Shown: positions 19,559 through 28,838 of the stretch, piece by piece | Layout of the letters: each line of letters starts with the position of its first letter | How positions within the stretch are numbered: the first letter of the stretch is position 1 | Assembly: GCA_040751815.1 (NCBI GenBank) | Contig: JBFMHQ010000003.1 | Span: 269 to 64,268, forward strand | DNA from: Bacillota bacterium | GTDB lineage: Bacteria; Bacillota; Desulfotomaculia; Desulfotomaculales; UBA12532 | DNA length: 64,000 bases | Direction: 5' to 3' | Translations under genes and position numbers: made by a program | The notes under the pieces: generated by a model | What the model was told of the DNA's origin: nothing | Seen by the model: only the letters and a program-made list of their open reading frames with translations | The model's database searches: none

Positions 19559-20032
19559 ATGTACCTGGTCAGCCCCACGAAGGGACGCATGACCTTCGAC
19601 CAGATGATGGACGACGTGATGGAGTACATCACCGGCCTTCCCAGCTCTTCGTACAAGATCATCATCGGGTCAGACTCCCAGGTTATCAAGGGGCAAACCT
19701 GCTTCATCACCGCGGTTATCGTTCACCGCCTGGGCAAGGGAGCGCGGTACTACTACCGGCGCAAGACCCACCGCAAGGTCAAGAGCCTGCGCCAGAAGAT
19801 CTTCTTCGAAACCGCCCTCAGCCTGGAACTGGGCGGTCAGGTGGCCAAAAGGTTTGCCGAGATGGGGCACGAAGATCTCAAGGTGGAAATCCACATCGAC
19901 GCCGGCACCCACGGGGACACCAAGGAACTGATCCGCGAGGTGGTCGGGATGGTTGCCGGCTCGGGGTTCAAGGCCAAGATCAAGCCCGAAGCGTACGGGG
20001 CGTCGTGCGTGGCCGACAGGCACACCAAGTAG
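19559..20032 (+). CDS. RNase H-like YkuK (DUF458) family protein
   Basis: IIGSDSQ..ETALSL..EIHIDAG..IKPEAYGASCVADRHTK. Confidence 0.85.
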   Translation: MYLVSPTKGRMTFDQMMDDVMEYITGLPSSSYKIIIGSDSQVIKGQTCFITAVIVHRLGKGARYYYRRKTHRKVKSLRQKIFFETALSLELGGQVAKRFAEMGHEDLKVEIHIDAGTHGDTKELIREVVGMVAGSGFKAKIKPEAYGASCVADRHTK

Positions 20033-20810
20033 CGGGGTCAAAGGAGGAGAGCAGGTCCCAGCGCCGGTCGCGGTGGTAGCCTATATAGGTCCGGCCGCGC
20101 CAGGTGCGGGACCTTTTTTGTCCCCGGAAAACGCGCCACGCTTCGAGGCAGTCCCCCACGATGGTTTCCGCTATCAGGCAGGTGTGGGCCTCGCCCCTGG
20201 GCGGCGAACCGAGCAGGGCATGGGGCAGGGCGGCGCCCACCACCACTTTCAGCCCCCCGCGCGCGGCCAGGGCGAGGGCCGCGGGCGGCACGGCCAGTTC
20301 GGGCAGCGGGATGCGCGCCAGGAAGCGCGCCGAAACCGCGTGGGGCCCGTGGGAGGGCGACGCGGCGCCCAGGTCCGGGCGTCCGACGGCCCGGTTGAGC
20401 AGCTTCCGGACGCGCAGGAGGGCGACCGCGAGGGGTTCCGCGGGCCACCCGTGCGGGTAGCAGTCGGTGAGGGCCAGGTCGGCTCCCCCCTCCACGGCCC
20501 GGACAAGGTCGGCCAGGGTCGGGCCGACCTCCCCGCCCATGTCCCCGTCGACGAACAGCACGCACGTCGCGCCGGCGGCCCGGGCGCAGAGGGCGCCCAC
20601 CGCCCGGGGGACGTCCACCCCCAGGGGCGCGGTGAAAAAGACCGGCGCCACGCGGGGGCCGGCCCGGGCCGCCACCTCCTCCGCCGTCGCGTCGGTGCTG
20701 CCGTTTACCACCGGGATGACCAGGTCCACCCCGAGGGCCAGGAGGCCGTCGACCACCCTGCCGATGGTTCTGGCCTCGTTGCGTGCGGGAACCACGGCGA
20801 CAAGCATCAT
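19980..20810 (-). CDS. Glycosyltransferase family 2
   Basis: VVPARNEARTI..NGSTDAT..FVDGD; overlaps the 3' end of the ykuK-like gene convergently. Confidence 0.8.
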   Translation of the reverse strand: MMLVAVVPARNEARTIGRVVDGLLALGVDLVIPVVNGSTDATAEEVAARAGPRVAPVFFTAPLGVDVPRAVGALCARAAGATCVLFVDGDMGGEVGPTLADLVRAVEGGADLALTDCYPHGWPAEPLAVALLRVRKLLNRAVGRPDLGAASPSHGPHAVSARFLARIPLPELAVPPAALALAARGGLKVVVGAALPHALLGSPPRGEAHTCLIAETIVGDCLEAWRVFRGQKRSRTWRGRTYIGYHRDRRWDLLSSFDPATWCACRPRTTPRTLRA

Positions 20811-20930
20811 GTTACCTCCGGTACCCCGCTATCAAAGTATGGAAAAATTTCCCGCTATGTGCCTTATCCGGGGAGCATCTTCTTTCCCGGCACATATGAT
20901 GAAATAGCCGGAAAAGGAGGTGAAACCTGG

Positions 20931-21788
20931 GTGTCTGTAATAACCCGAGGTGACATTGTAGCCCGGCGTTCCTACAAGATGGATATCTACTTCAAAGTCA
21001 TAGAGGTCTTTATGGCTACGGACGGAAAAAAACACGCGCTCCTGCGCGGGATCGACATAAGGCTCCTGGCCGATGCGCCGGTGGACGATCTTGTCAAGGT
21101 TACGCCAGGCGAGGTGGCGGCCTACTGGCGCAACGTCCTCCAGACCAGCGGCGAATACATAAGGCGCGCCTTCGCCCGCCGGGAGGAAACGCGCCCTTCT
21201 TTAAACCGCGGCGCCGAGGTCGAAACCTTCGACGTGCCCGGTCGGGTGCTGCATATCGATGGGGACGAGGACTACCTGGAGCTTTGCGAAACAACCTACC
21301 GGCAGCTGGGGGTTCCGCACCACACCTACCACATCGAGGAAAAGGATCAGCCGGCGAAGGTGGAAGATCTCCTGCGCCGGCATCGCCCCGATATCCTGGT
21401 CCTGACCGGGCACGACGGCTTTATTAAGGGCCGGCAGGACTTCGCCGATCTCGCCTCCTACCGCAACTCCTCGCATTTCGTGGCGGCGGTGGATGCGGCC
21501 CGGCGTTACGAAAAGAGCCGCGACGACCTGGTGATCTTCGCCGGCGCGTGTCAGTCCCACTACGAGGCCTTGCTGGAGGCAGGAGCAAACTTCGCCAGCT
21601 CCCCCCGGCGGGTGATGATCCACGCCTTCGATCCGGTCTTCATCGTGGAAAAAATCGCCTACACGCCCACTTACAAGCACCTTCCCCTCAGGGAAATCAT
21701 CGAGGCCACCATCACCGGCTTTCCGGGGATCGGCGGCGTGGAAACCTGGGGAAAATACCGTCTCGGCGCCCCCAGGTCGCCTTACTGA
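20931..21788 (+). CDS. yabG: Sporulation-specific coat peptidase YabG
   Basis: GDIVARRSY..RLLADAP..PGRVLHIDGD..LTGHDG..FAGACQS; AAGGAGG RBS. Confidence 0.95.
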   Translation: MSVITRGDIVARRSYKMDIYFKVIEVFMATDGKKHALLRGIDIRLLADAPVDDLVKVTPGEVAAYWRNVLQTSGEYIRRAFARREETRPSLNRGAEVETFDVPGRVLHIDGDEDYLELCETTYRQLGVPHHTYHIEEKDQPAKVEDLLRRHRPDILVLTGHDGFIKGRQDFADLASYRNSSHFVAAVDAARRYEKSRDDLVIFAGACQSHYEALLEAGANFASSPRRVMIHAFDPVFIVEKIAYTPTYKHLPLREIIEATITGFPGIGGVETWGKYRLGAPRSPY

Positions 21789-21948
21789 CGCGGCCGGACA
21801 CCGGCCCTCGGCCCCGGCGCCGCGCGGCAACCCCGCGACCCTTAAAAGCGCCCGCGAACAAAAACCCCTCGCGGTATTATATGGTAACCCAGGCAATACC
21901 ATGCTCAACCTGCCTATTTATGTCATATATTGCTGGGTGAGGGAGGGG

Positions 21949-22257
21949 ATGAAGGTGACCGGTAGAGCTGCCCTCTGCGTCATCAACGACGTGCCGGTAA
22001 TCGGCTCCCGCTTTGCCTGCCGGGAGGAGGCCCTGGCCTCCGTCCGGCGCATGGTAGCCCTTGTGGAAAAATTTGTAGAACCGGCTGCGGCCGCTTGCGG
22101 GGTAGAGTTCCTCCGGAAGGAGGATGGTCCGGCCACGTTGCGGGTAACCGTTGGGGAAGAGGTCCTGGCGTGCGTAAACGGCCTCGACGACGTTACCCTT
22201 TGGCGCTTCAAGAAACTGTTTAAAAAAAAAGATGTTTATCCTGTCCGGCTTCATTGA
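21949..22257 (+). CDS. Hypothetical protein, possibly frameshifted at an A9 tract (would extend to 22348)
   Basis: GGGAGG RBS; coding-like continuation in the +1 frame. Confidence 0.55.
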   Translation: MKVTGRAALCVINDVPVIGSRFACREEALASVRRMVALVEKFVEPAAAACGVEFLRKEDGPATLRVTVGEEVLACVNGLDDVTLWRFKKLFKKKDVYPVRLH

Positions 22258-23800: not shown

Positions 23801-25345
23801 ATGAGCATAAAGACGGAACGCCTGAAGGTGAAGCAGGTTGTCGGCGAGAAGACGAAGCAGGTGGCGGTGCGCAGCCGCATTACCATCCCCACGCCCAAGC
23901 CGCCCGCGGACCAGGTCCTCAACGCCCGCGCCCAGGCCGAGGTCACCCAGACCGAGATTATCAAGGACAAGGTTCTCGTCGAAGGTCTCATCACCATCCA
24001 CGTGACCTACGTTTCCACTTCCCCGGGGCAGCCGGTGCACCACGTGGAGCAGGAACTCCAGTTCACCGAGGCGGTTGAAATCAAGGGCGCCGAGCCCGAC
24101 ATGGACGTCTACACCGAGGTTACCGTGGAGAAGGTCAGGGCCCACGTGGACGAAACCAACCCCCTGGTCATCGTCGTCACCGTGATCCTGAAGCTCTTCG
24201 TCAAGGTCACCAAGACCGTGGAAGTGGACGTCGTCGTTGAGGCGCCGCCGGAGAACCAGCCGGTCAAGAAGAAGGTGCAGGTGGAAGAGGTCATCGCCGC
24301 CGGCGAGGCCCAGGTGGTGGTCACCGAACAGGTCACCCTGCCCGCCGTCAAACCGGACATTCGCGAAGTCCTTGACGTCCTGTCCGACCTGACCATCACC
24401 CAGAAGGAAGTCCTCACCGACAAGGTGGTGGTAGAAGGTACACTTACGGTCCAGGTGATCTACGTGTCGACCGCCCCGGAGCAGCCGGTGCACCACGCCC
24501 ACTTTCAGATTCCCTTCACCCAGTTCATCGAGGTGCCGGGCGCGGAACCGGATATGCAGGTGGATATCCAGGCCAAAATCGAAGACGTTGAGGCGCAGCG
24601 GAAGACCAACCGCGAACTGGCCATCGACGCCGTACTGTCCCTGAAGGCCGAGGTTACCGCCACCCGCGAAATGACCATCGTGGTCGATATTAAGGGCCAC
24701 CCCGAGCTTAAGAAGATCAAGCTTTTCCTGGACCAGGTCGTCGGCGAGGCCACGCAGCAACTGGTGCTGCGGGAGACCGGGCGCATCCCCGAGACCAAAC
24801 CGCCGGCGCAAAAGGTGCTGGATATCTTCGTGCACAGCGTCGAGGTGACCGAAACCGAGATTCTGGCCAATAAGGTCATCGTCCGCGGCGCGGTGGAGGT
24901 CAAGGTCAGCTACGTGGCCGATGTTATACCTCCGACGCAGCCGGTGCACGCCTTCGAAGAGCGCATCGTGTTCAACGCCGCCGTGCCCATTAAAGGTGTC
25001 AAAGAGGACATGACGGTGCGCGTTACCGTGACCTCCGAGCACGCTTCCGCGGATCTGGTCGGCCCGCGCGAGGTGGCGAAGCACGTTGTGCTGAAGGTTG
25101 CGGTCCGGGTCACCAAGGTGCTGCAGCAGGAAGTGCTGGTTAAGGCCGTGGCCGCGCCGCCGCCGGAGTGCAAGCCGGGGGAGGTCATCGAGTACACCAT
25201 CCAGCCGGGCGACACCCTGTGGCGGCTGGCGCAAAGGTACGGCACCACGGTTAATGCCATCCTGAACCTGAACCCGGGGATCGACCCCAACAACCTGCAG
25301 GTGGGGATGACCGTCAAGATTCCCTGCAACGCCGACCCCGCCTGA
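23801..25345 (+). CDS. Spore coat morphogenetic protein with three SPOCS (DUF3794) repeats and C-terminal LysM (SipL-like)
   Basis: Three repeats of (D/N)KV.V.G..V.YV..QPVH; LysM YTIQPGDTLWRLAQRYGTTV. Confidence 0.88.
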   Translation: MSIKTERLKVKQVVGEKTKQVAVRSRITIPTPKPPADQVLNARAQAEVTQTEIIKDKVLVEGLITIHVTYVSTSPGQPVHHVEQELQFTEAVEIKGAEPDMDVYTEVTVEKVRAHVDETNPLVIVVTVILKLFVKVTKTVEVDVVVEAPPENQPVKKKVQVEEVIAAGEAQVVVTEQVTLPAVKPDIREVLDVLSDLTITQKEVLTDKVVVEGTLTVQVIYVSTAPEQPVHHAHFQIPFTQFIEVPGAEPDMQVDIQAKIEDVEAQRKTNRELAIDAVLSLKAEVTATREMTIVVDIKGHPELKKIKLFLDQVVGEATQQLVLRETGRIPETKPPAQKVLDIFVHSVEVTETEILANKVIVRGAVEVKVSYVADVIPPTQPVHAFEERIVFNAAVPIKGVKEDMTVRVTVTSEHASADLVGPREVAKHVVLKVAVRVTKVLQQEVLVKAVAAPPPECKPGEVIEYTIQPGDTLWRLAQRYGTTVNAILNLNPGIDPNNLQVGMTVKIPCNADPA

Positions 25346-25376
25346 GCGGAAGACGGCGGAAAAAGAAAGAAAAAAG

Positions 25377-25402
25377 GGGGCTATACGGTACCGTATAGCC
25401 CC
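25377..25402. terminator. Palindromic terminator between convergent sipL-like and protease operons
   Basis: GGGGCTATACGG-ta-CCGTATAGCCCC with a T-run on the minus strand. Confidence 0.75.
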
Positions 25403-25641
25403 TATTCTTCTTCTTGCGGCTCCGGCCCCTCCTGAGCGGGCCGGGGCACCGCCAGGGATTGCAGCCGCTCGATGCTTTCCCTGATGCCGGACGACACGTC
25501 GCGGATGTTTTGGACAAGATTGGAGATGAAATCCAGCCGCGCTTCGAAGTCCGGCGTGGCGGCGGACATGGCGCCCAGGAGAAAAAGGAGGGCCAGGGCC
25601 GGCATACTCGCCTGCTGCTGTTCAGGCTGCGGCAACATCAT
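25402..25641 (-). CDS. Small hypothetical protein (hydrophobic segment + amphipathic helix)
   Basis: GGAGGTG RBS; begins ~15 nt after the protease stop; exact start uncertain. Confidence 0.7.
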   Translation of the reverse strand: MMLPQPEQQQASMPALALLFLLGAMSAATPDFEARLDFISNLVQNIRDVSSGIRESIERLQSLAVPRPAQEGPEPQEEE

Positions 25642-25656
25642 CACCTCCGGTTTCTT

Positions 25657-26664
25657 TTACGGGAACCGCACGGCCAGCGCCCGCAGCACGTTGTTGATGC
25701 GGTTGCAGACGGTGGTATTTTCCGAGCCGGCGAAAAGGAGGCCGACGGCCCGATTTTTCTCGTCGACCACCAGCGAGCCGCTGTCGCCGGGCTTGCTCAG
25801 GGCACTGGTCACGACCTGGTCATCAAAGACGGCGTTCGAGCCCTCGCCGACATCGACGGTAACGGTGGCGTGAACGTAGTTCACCGCGCCGCCGGTAACC
25901 CCGCTGGTGCGCCCGCTCTTCTTCACCGGCATGCCGATTTCCGCCTCCACCGTACCGGTGACCTTTCCGATCTCCAGGATTTCTGTTTTCAGGTCGCGAG
26001 GGTTGAGGGGCGCGGCCACGGCGGCGTCCACCACGTTGCGGCCGTTCGCGCGCCGGTACATGCGGACGGCGTAGGCGGGGTGGTAACTCTGAACCGCGGT
26101 GTTGAGCAGGTATTCTATGCGGGCGGCCACGGGGCACGTTACGGCCTGCGGGCTGTACTGGAGCGCGACAAAGCGGACCAGGCGGGCGAACCTGTCGCGG
26201 CGGACGTCCCCGCCGTCGTAGGGTCCAGGCTGCAGGACGGGATCGCCCGTCTGGGCGCGGCCATCCGCGCCGTTAGACCTGTTGGCCAGGATGTGGTTGT
26301 TGGACAGGATTAGAGGCGCCCCGTTCTTATCCACGACCACCGCGCCCAGCGTGCCCGCGGTAATCCGGTAGTGGCCGATGCTGACGCCGGGCGCCGCCGG
26401 GCGCATCCTGCCGGTGCGTTCGCCGAGCAGGCGCACTTTCCCGACGGCCACCACGTCGGTGGGGAGGTTGTTGACGCGCCGCGGGACGAGTTGCGCCCGG
26501 GGCAGGGCATCGGGCGGGAGCTTTTTCTCCACGAAAACGACCACGGCCAGGTCCGGGGTCCTCTCCCCGCCCACTTCCCTGTAGCCGATGCCCACGCCGA
26601 CCACGTTGGGCAGCTCCAGCAACCGGTCACGGTGATCTTCTAGCGCCTGGCGGAACAGGTTCAT
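25657..26664 (-). CDS. Trypsin-like (S1-clan) serine protease with N-terminal LPNVVGVGIG domain
   Basis: Triad motifs LSNNHIL, VDAAVA, GDSGS; KKSGRTSG; no signal peptide visible. Confidence 0.85.
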   Translation of the reverse strand: MNLFRQALEDHRDRLLELPNVVGVGIGYREVGGERTPDLAVVVFVEKKLPPDALPRAQLVPRRVNNLPTDVVAVGKVRLLGERTGRMRPAAPGVSIGHYRITAGTLGAVVVDKNGAPLILSNNHILANRSNGADGRAQTGDPVLQPGPYDGGDVRRDRFARLVRFVALQYSPQAVTCPVAARIEYLLNTAVQSYHPAYAVRMYRRANGRNVVDAAVAAPLNPRDLKTEILEIGKVTGTVEAEIGMPVKKSGRTSGVTGGAVNYVHATVTVDVGEGSNAVFDDQVVTSALSKPGDSGSLVVDEKNRAVGLLFAGSENTTVCNRINNVLRALAVRFP

Positions 26665-26792
26665 CTGGCATCACCTTCACTGGAAGACCCCTGAAAAGTG
26701 TCCTCCGGGGCTAAGGGGAGAGGGCCAGGCGCGGCCCTCTCATTCCCTTGCGGACGTTCCCTGCGGAGCGAGGATGGCGGCCCCCTCAGACG

Positions 26793-26900
26793 TTATGCCG
26801 AAAGCGGGAACAGGAAGAAGAAGAAGAAGAAGATTACGATGACGATGATGATGATGATCCACCACCAGATAAAAACTCCCGGATCCCTCAGTTCGGGCAT
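26793..26900 (-). CDS. Small hydrophobic WWW peptide E (35 aa) MPELRDPGVFIWWWIIIIIVIVIFFFFFFLFPLSA
   Basis: Manual translation; GGAAGGGAGG RBS; paralogous to four neighbours. Confidence 0.85.
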   Translation of the reverse strand: MPELRDPGVFIWWWIIIIIVIVIFFFFFFLFPLSA

Positions 26901-26931
26901 GCGGCAGGCCTCCCTTCCTAAATTTTGGTAT

Positions 26932-26960
26932 TAAGTTATGCGGTTCTGTATCTTTTGGTT
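26932..26960 (-). promoter_or_regulatory. SigK-like promoter
   Basis: AACC-N16-CATAACTTA. Confidence 0.6.
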
Positions 26961-27229
26961 ACCGTGGGCGGTTCGGCCGGGCGGAGGACAGGGCGGCGAT
27001 GTGGGGATGCCGCCGCCGGCCGGGAGGCCGGGGTCCGTGATCCCCTGTCGTGGCAACCGGAACCAAGCCCTCCCGCCGTTACCTGCTATACAAGGGTATG
27101 AAAAGGCGGCGCCCGTGGTGACATGATTCCGGTGCGTGCGCGGAGCATGCGCGGGTTCGCACCGCGCTCCGGGGAGAAATACGAAGAGGGCCTGCAGGCC
27201 CTCTTCCCCTGGGCGGTGAAGGGTCTCCG

Positions 27230-27538: not shown

Positions 27539-27655
27539 TCAGTTGGAGCACCAACCCGAGAACGGCCAGAAGACCAGGACCAGGAACAGGATGATGATGA
27601 TGATAATGACCCACCACCAGCCGAAGAAGACACCGGGCTTCTGAAGTTCGGGCAT
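27539..27655 (-). CDS. Small hydrophobic WWW peptide B (38 aa) MPELQKPGVFFGWWWVIIIIIILFLVLVFWPFSGWCSN
   Basis: 3' end of track ORF 27539..27913; AAGGAGG RBS before ATG 27655. Confidence 0.88.
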   Translation of the reverse strand: MPELQKPGVFFGWWWVIIIIIILFLVLVFWPFSGWCSN

Positions 27656-27898: not shown

Positions 27899-27927
27899 TA
27901 AGGTATGAGGCACCGCGTTCTTTTGTT
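27899..27927 (-). promoter_or_regulatory. SigK-like promoter for the peptide array
   Basis: AACA-N16-CATACCTTA. Confidence 0.6.
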
Positions 27928-28061
27928 ACAGGCCGGTGTTCCCGGCAAAGGTCCGCCCGTACCGCCAGCTTATGCGGCGCCTGCCCCTTTGGTGCCGCAC
28001 CGGGCACACGCCGCGGCGGGCGCATATATTAATACGAAATCCCAAAGCGGAGGGCTAAAGA

Positions 28062-28406: not shown

Positions 28407-28838
28407 GTGACGGACGGAAAGCCGGAAAAGGAACCTTTGCCGGGGCGCGAATTCGGTGATGTGCTGGCCAGCGTTGCCGACTTTCAGGCGCGGCAGGGAA
28501 TGGATCACTCCGACCTGCTCCTCTTCCTGAGCCTGGTGGATCTCCTCGCGGTGCTGAACCTCATGCACCGCCGCTGGGCGGGGGGCGCCGTAGCCGGTAT
28601 GCCGGCTGGGGCGGCCGATCTGGTCTCCCAGGCCCTGAAGATGCTGCCCGGGGGCGGTGCGGAACTCCTGCGCCTCCTGGGCAAGGAGGGCGGGAACCTG
28701 GCCTCCCTGGTTTCCTCCCTCGCCGGCGCCCTGCGCCCGCCGGCAGCGCCCGCCGAGGGGGGCGAGAAGCCGGAAAGGGGGGAGAAGAAGGAAGGGGCTT
28801 CCCGGGAAGTGGTGCGCTGGGATTTCGGGAAGAAATAG
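28407..28838 (+). CDS. Hypothetical protein
   Basis: Long ORF with coding-like codon usage, co-directional with the ybaB paralog. Confidence 0.7.
   Translation: MTDGKPEKEPLPGREFGDVLASVADFQARQGMDHSDLLLFLSLVDLLAVLNLMHRRWAGGAVAGMPAGAADLVSQALKMLPGGGAELLRLLGKEGGNLASLVSSLAGALRPPAAPAEGGEKPERGEKKEGASREVVRWDFGKK

Follow-up and report, generated by a model that had tools for sequence, protein, structure and literature searches.

Three genes lie side by side in the window (the whole 64-kb stretch of DNA that was analysed), coding for a hydrophobic micropeptide, a serine protease resembling NAL1 and a small helical protein. The reading we favour, with moderate confidence, is that these three genes form one unit co-transcribed late in the mother cell, and that the protease is a general coat-remodelling or quality-control enzyme. 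The inventory of clostridial-type spore coats is poor, and the principal processing protease known from such coats is YabG. The initial annotation had proposed a late-sporulation module in which the protease matures the peptides. The late-sporulation unit, predicted to be a single transcript, is retained here; the dedicated peptide maturation is not, as peptides accompany the protease at 4 of 80 loci and the supposed leader MPELxxPG is limited to one genus, and a module devoted to that task is considered unlikely. The other function suggested at that time, remodelling of the coat layer, is the supported reading, with the activity itself predicted.

The genes of the unit and of its surroundings are arranged as follows.

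20892..22257, plus strand: yabG, then a 118-aa gene; in many relatives the protease gene lies between these two
23801..25345, plus strand: SipL-type coat morphogenetic gene (three SPOCS domains and LysM), convergent with the protease unit
25402..25641 (or 25644), minus strand: 79-aa protein (79-80 aa), with a hydrophobic helix at 13-28 and a long helix at 32-64
25657..26664, minus strand: NAL1-like trypsin-fold serine protease, 335 aa, with a NAL1_N-like domain at 1-80 and the triad H124/D213/S295
26793..26900, minus strand: micropeptide E, 35 aa, rich in Trp, Ile and Phe, with a ribosome-binding site; orthologues in L111, L290 and L318
27230..27343, minus strand: micropeptide D, 37 aa
27386..27499, minus strand: micropeptide C, 37 aa, GTG start
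27539..27655, minus strand: micropeptide B, 38 aa
27727..27867, minus strand: micropeptide A, 46 aa

The spacers measure 128 nt between peptide E and the protease gene and 12-15 nt between the latter and the 79-aa gene, and the gene order was confirmed as first described, with peptide E, the 335-aa protease and the 79-aa gene running co-directionally into a two-way terminator (25376-25403). The sporulation-type setting is likewise upheld by the neighbours, namely YabG (TIGR02855, over the cut-off), a YkwD-type CAP protein and the SipL/LysM protein, the genes of the first two both lying upstream of sipL. Unlike in many relatives, yabG in the window stands directly beside the 118-aa gene, with no protease between them. 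The genome, 77% complete, holds an intact sigma-K and a single copy of each unit gene, and peptides A-E are its sole WW-type micro-ORF cluster. The 118-aa gene after yabG (21901-22257, plus strand) and a 143-aa gene after a YbaB-like gene (28407-28838, plus strand) belong to no Pfam family and travel with the sporulation region class-wide.

Several promoter-like sites and hairpins delimit the predicted transcripts.

25376..25403, both strands: two-way terminator-like hairpin common to the unit and the convergent sipL
26718..26741, minus strand: 9-bp GC hairpin without a U-tract in the spacer between peptide E and the protease, a predicted step-down or stabilising element
26933..26959, minus strand: proximal sigma-K-like promoter (ACC-N16-CATA) of the E unit, both boxes kept in the window, L295 and L290
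27093..27119, minus strand: distal sigma-K-like promoter (ACC-N16-CATA) of the E unit, kept in the window, L295 and L290
27183..27206, minus strand: U-tailed hairpin, end of the peptide A-D unit
27900..27926 and 27967..27993, minus strand: two sigma-K-like promoters upstream of peptide A

The unit boundaries drawn in the initial annotation coincide with a predicted transcript, with promoters of its own for E and a separate hairpin that ends A-D. The terminal hairpin at 25376-25403 has z scores of -4.4 and -5.4 on the two strands and was matched by 0 of 200 shuffles. No promoter of the protease's own was found in the window at the usual position directly ahead of the gene, and a sigma-70 scan gave no match within the unit. 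Eight stricter sigma-K-like sites occur in the 64 kb, four of them inside the peptide cluster. The two promoter sites of E are separated in the window by an 87-nt insert; candidates for a sixth ORF between them (35-41 aa, 26931-27066) were rejected, since they fall within this insert, which is missing from L295 and L290. Elsewhere in the window, a sigma-K-like site at 20834-20860 (minus strand) precedes a GT2 glycosyltransferase gene (19980-20810, minus strand) divergent from yabG, and the motif recurs in 6 of 35 related loci.

The hairpin in the peptide E/protease spacer was reached by 1 of 200 shuffles, and its arms are invariant and its loop variable among three loci. Perfect stems of at least 9 bp were found in 8 of 13 peptide-protease spacers (two of the eight identical in sequence, five of the 13 failing) versus 0 of 19 peptide-peptide spacers, and imperfect stems were predicted by RNAfold in the spacers of L188, L191, L194 and L346. 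It is the local stem alone that stands out, as the whole E-protease spacer of the window folds no better than shuffles (z -0.11). In the accessible part of PMC9045158, internal stems low in U are described as reducing downstream transcript levels in clostridial operons, and the ratio of peptide to protease transcript is on this ground expected to be high.

The timing of expression was examined in related genomes through the same motif. The CATA -10 box and the 16-nt spacing, which we take to be sigma-K elements, were reproduced at yabG, where AC[AC]-N16-CATA was found upstream in 26 of 56 cases. Within 120 nt upstream of the protease the motif was present at 50 of 106 peptide-less Bacillota loci (shuffle mean 1.3), so that the AC -35 and CATA -10 elements at fixed spacing expected of the sigma-K regulon are there. 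The control genes had none (0/56 RNase H-like, 0/13 gntR, 0/12 DMT, 0/10 ZIP), and the protease relatives outside the Bacillota had 1 of 8. It is stated in the available text of PMC3789822 that the -35 element tells sigma-K from sigma-E (AC versus ATA) and that yabG of C. difficile is under sigma-K control; because the two factors share the -10 box, the sigma-K assignment is carried by the AC -35 element. From these sites, the protease is predicted to behave like a late mother-cell gene.

The distribution of the protease is consistent with this timing. The gene is present in 150 of the 162 genomes of the class and in 98 of the 251 genomes of the phylum sample. SpoIVA is found in 95 of these 98, and the protease is absent from 41 of the 44 SpoIVA-less genomes, the kin among them not being independent. 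Among the 207 SpoIVA genomes sampled, 95 carry the protease and 112 do not, and in four near-complete members of the class (G091, G095, G096 and G037) yabG and spoIVA are present but the protease is not; the protease is therefore dispensable. Nal1-like relatives were also found in non-sporulating phyla.

The intact triad, the lack of a signal peptide and the extra N-terminal domain noted at first were all recovered. All 40 aligned homologues (40/40) keep H124 (SNNH), D213 (DAA) and S295 (GDSGS), the respective motifs were seen in 123, 124 and 124 members of a set of 124 proteins, and the window protein has the trypsin-fold domain to which the His/Asp/Ser triad belongs. In the structure model (pLDDT 86.7), the N-terminus is a folded, NAL1_N-like domain of helix and sheet and not a signal peptide. 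The best PDB matches are all rice NAL1, over the whole chain (E 1e-14, TM ~0.6), and S. griseus protease B ranks behind. Both Pfam gathering scores were missed by the window protease (NAL1_N, 23.8 against 27 bits; Nal1_C, 21.8 against 26.1 bits). At E<=0.01, PF25608 (NAL1_N) was matched by 40 of 40 homologues and Nal1_C by 35 of 40, and both domains are precomputed for many close homologues; the whole-chain fold match and the 40 homologues together place a NAL1_N domain ahead of the protease domain.

A Glu-specific S1 pocket was rejected, no His being present at the position equivalent to chymotrypsin 213, the numbering that we assume for the His position of this pocket. Among named organisms, Desulforudis, Desulfothermobacter, Ammonifex and Desulfofundulus have the closest relatives of the protease, which makes the host a likely member of the Desulfotomaculia. 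Short-form paralogues that lack about 30 residues of an insertion at 165-210 were seen in L401, L410, G035:C35 and G005:C58, two of them right beside the long form. In rice NAL1, according to the part of PMC12012508 that is available, ATP is contacted by R120, R122, K123, K139, D166 and V167, stabilises the trimer and stays unhydrolysed. Four of these positions (R120, K139, D166 and V167) align to R29, K48, D70 and V71 of the window protease, the other two, R122 and K123, are not conserved, and neither K48 nor D70 varies among the aligned homologues. In model and alignment, the extra N-terminal domain corresponds to the ATP-binding domain of NAL1.

The peptides themselves are widespread. A broad peptide profile matched 127 of the 162 genomes of the class, and the best 29 profile loci, when checked, all (29/29) had micro-ORFs bearing ribosome-binding sites; the locus therefore points to an unannotated hydrophobic micropeptide family. 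Short ORFs with one hydrophobic core and a mother-cell-type promoter were found in 15 of 53 (shuffle 0.8) and 14 of 79 (shuffle 1.0) cases. Membership in the YjcZ/SscA family was rejected: models PF09680 and TIGR01732 matched none of 25 and 18 small proteins and gave nothing over the cut-off in five genomes, and the B. subtilis control was detected. Hydrophobic micropeptide genes form arrays, the largest with about ten members, at L199:3024-5293, L200:10200-13694 and L197:9817-12004, as well as in L361, L373, L382 and L386, and WWW-type relatives lie on other metagenome contigs (L264, L266, L275, L307); these peptides belong to no Pfam or NCBIfam family.

How often the two partners are linked bears directly on function. 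In an all-species scan of 80 orthologue loci, 29 have yabG co-directionally upstream, and hydrophobic micro-ORFs lie within 2 kb upstream in four (L040, L050, L097 and L104), five of the 80 holding less than 2 kb of upstream sequence. A further 24 phylum loci showed no peptide cluster, and four of them have a single longer hydrophobic ORF nearby. Orthologues of the protease are thus generally without neighbouring peptides, which is largely the outcome that the first proposal itself had named as refuting it. Seen from the peptides, a metagenome scan for the WWW type gave 89 loci, 28 with micro-ORFs, and the protease at 3 of these 28; many contigs are short, four of the 28 are doubtful, and the three protease loci are all of the window's type. 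Precursor and protease genes side by side, the arrangement expected for leader maturation, are accordingly the exception at both kinds of loci. The protease is retained in most members of families f9, f3 and f7, in which 0/9, 0/1 and 0/3 genomes gave a peptide match. Because 29 of 80 loci follow yabG and these three families have no peptide match, a generalist protease is favoured.

These counts weigh on the proposal that the protease cuts off an N-terminal segment such as MPELxxPG, or frees the tail, in order to mature the peptides. The recurrent linkage and the predicted co-transcription in f1 and f19 speak for it, as do two loci at which peptides adjoin two proteases (L097:4197-7010 and L104:4137-7030: three Trp-rich peptides, a subtilase (PF00082), then the Nal1-like protease) and the absence of a peptide match from all seven protease-less genomes that are at least 90% complete, four of which belong to lineages without peptides anyway. 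Against it, MPELxxPG is confined to the window's genus-level group, the residues ahead of the hydrophobic core number between 5 and 20 and share no motif, and the protease-adjacent peptides compared have no conserved leader or cleavage motif. Together with the 4 of 80 loci and the persistence of the protease in f9, f3 and f7, this makes a dedicated maturase improbable, and removal of MPELxxPG in particular was not borne out.

In some lineages the coupling is nevertheless real, because the link persists at four different loci: ybaB/sipL (f1, f19), Ku/LigD (G039, G111), L040 and L097/L104. Peptides lie directly upstream of the protease in both f1 genomes and in 7 of 13 f19 genomes; five further f19 genomes have one or two genes of opposite orientation in between, and the remaining one, G042, gave no call (six f19 genomes were chosen through their peptide matches). 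At the Ku/LigD locus, G039 and G111 carry second protease copies with peptides, and G121 has the peptides without the protease. In L122, L346 and L193, the ligase and polymerase genes of the Ku/LigD locus flank a micropeptide cluster, which may or may not be accompanied by a second protease copy.

Part of this pattern would also be expected if the genes were co-regulated neighbours only, the protease gene having moved behind a strong sigma-K peptide cluster whose promoter it borrows, with enzyme and peptides never meeting. Peptides and protease are both common in the class yet unlinked in most genomes (0.49-3 Mb apart, among the matches listed, in the closed genomes G099, G065, G064, G102, G040, G106 and G107), and the G121 locus, the 3 of 28 metagenome loci and the intervening genes of the five f19 genomes agree with such a history. 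It is harder to reconcile with a link that survives at four loci and with the trees, in which the peptide-linked proteases are not members of the order's yabG-linked clade. There, an origin of the second G039 and G111 copies by duplication of the yabG-linked copy in the same genome is rejected (AU p 0.024, for a group chosen once the tree had been seen), and a single clade uniting every peptide-linked protease is compatible with the data (p 0.39, from 54 of 128 rows); the link may go back to one old peptide-protease cassette or to several captures. Mere co-regulation is accordingly regarded as possible but less likely than the general coat enzyme.

The 79-aa gene raises a further alternative, namely that its product or peptide E serves as anchor, adaptor or inhibitor and keeps the protease tethered at the outer forespore membrane or on the coat. 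Both proteins contain a hydrophobic segment of 15-22 residues, the 79-aa gene follows the protease by no more than about 20 nt in f1, f19 and f7, and related hydrophobic ORFs stand behind the protease in L064, L067, L403 and L405. The 79-aa family, found in 126 of the 162 genomes of the class, is on the other hand usually apart from the protease, either on the opposite strand at a distance of 5-9 kb or at another place altogether, and f9 and f3 keep the protease without it; we give a tethering role little credence. The 79-aa protein is modelled as two helices and has no Pfam or NCBIfam family and no usable Atlas match. Kinship with the peptides was rejected for want of profile similarity (hhalign probability 1.7%), although several family members share an FLILILL core with the peptides.

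In relatives, the protease gene is a recurrent target of skin-like elements, at a site that is intact in the window.

26224..26232, minus strand: codons Q145-P146-G147, the element site in 17 related genomes

The gene is broken at these codons in 17 of 150 genomes, from families f18, f6, f20 and f15 (G033 (L131), G031 (L132), G029 (L133/L134), G056 (L204), G057 (L206), G161 (L207) and G147 (L208), and also G060, G055, G052, G018, G058, G135, G136, G138, G148 and G134). In 15 of them, flanks are present at both sides, with a short common core in the same frame and inverted arms; in G018 and G134 the gene is broken at contig ends at the same codons. Five genomes (G090, G053, G097, G006, G059) were left out of the 17, their breaks lying near residue 204 or 142-175 or concerning short-form paralogues. 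The inserts measure roughly 2 to 91 kb. Each of the seven that were inspected contains a recombinase-like ORF of 530-547 aa, with large serine recombinase domains confirmed by Pfam in 3 of 3 ORFs scanned, and in six this ORF is immediately preceded by one of 37-64 aa, possibly a directionality factor; none of the seven showed phage genes. Recombinase, in-frame common core and inverted arms at both junctions, the marks of a gene-intervening element, are thus found together in relatives.

Large-serine-recombinase elements in mother-cell sporulation genes are described in the accessible text of PMC4191935, PMC5595907 and PMC10747680, the last of which, in the part available, already gives yabG as a target (the yin element). 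In the present genomes, yabG is split in G034, G021, G022, G002 and G035 at two different sites, the 3' end (L126, L127, L128, L130) and the vicinity of residue 187 (L129). The yabG element of G021 has two near-identical recombinase genes in tandem.

On the favoured reading of a coat-remodelling unit, the following course of events is proposed. Peptide, protease and 79-aa gene would be transcribed together from the sigma-K-type promoters late in the mother cell, and the spacer hairpin would make peptide mRNA abundant and protease mRNA scarce, as would be expected if the one encodes bulk coat material and the other a catalyst. By analogy with B. subtilis SscA, the peptides may be small hydrophobic constituents of the coat that are brought in by way of a SipL-type scaffold. 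If NAL1 is a guide, the N-domain would bind nucleotide and so stabilise an oligomer with enclosed active sites. The putative role of the protease is then to trim or clear coat proteins alongside YabG; surplus or aggregated peptides are perhaps among its substrates, with no fixed leader removed.

As given by its distribution in the class and among SpoIVA genomes, the protease is a candidate second coat protease besides YabG, and within the literature searched this is the first physiological setting for bacterial NAL1 relatives. Our search, limited for subscription papers, returned no paper that deals with bacterial NAL1-like proteases in sporulation, with WW-type hydrophobic micropeptides or with an element in the protease gene (published element lists may include this target), and no mention of the protease was found in the accessible part of a sporulation gene survey (10.1101/2022.02.25.481979). 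As a tentative and more speculative generalisation, NAL1-type cage proteases could be an unrecognised second coat-maturation protease of clostridial-type spores, acting on hydrophobic coat micropeptides of a large and for the most part unannotated family, in an old cassette that moved between loci and with the enzyme switched on by skin-like mother-cell excision in at least 17 genomes.

Several known systems offer comparisons. The hairpin resembles the clostridial internal low-U terminators (available text of PMC9045158) in its GC-rich stem, its U-poor tail and its place between an abundant first gene and later genes, the difference being that the stem here is known from sequence. B. subtilis SscA is described in the part of PMC13417171 that is accessible as a 28-aa, highly expressed, SafA-dependent inner-coat peptide; like SscA/YjcZ, the peptides have about 30-45 aa, one hydrophobic core and multiple copies, but they match neither model, their core is rich in Trp and Ile, and they are linked to a protease in some lineages. 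The elements share with skin, SP-beta, gin and yin the terminal large serine recombinase, the small upstream ORF, the in-frame short common core and the inverted arms, and differ in their target, a Nal1-like protease gene, in their restriction to relatives of the window and in being known here from gene arrangement. The coat protease YabG (TIGR02855) has the sigma-K-type timing that is predicted for the NAL1-like protease, is its commonest upstream neighbour and is encoded by a gene likewise split by recombinase elements, whereas it is an unrelated cysteine protease, near-universal in spore formers, and the NAL1-like protease occurs in 95 of 207 SpoIVA genomes sampled. Rice NAL1 (NARROW LEAF 1; PDB 7y77, 8hau, 8pmm; PF25608, PF25819) agrees with the window protease in the N-domain followed by a trypsin fold, in the triad and in the lack of a signal peptide, and four of the six ATP-contact positions agree in the alignment. 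The identity is 19-20%, and, unlike the plant protein, the window protease is bacterial, has a sporulation-type promoter and neighbours, is without the stretch equivalent to NAL1 residues 1-88, from which the rice hexamer is built, and has the insertion at about 165-210.
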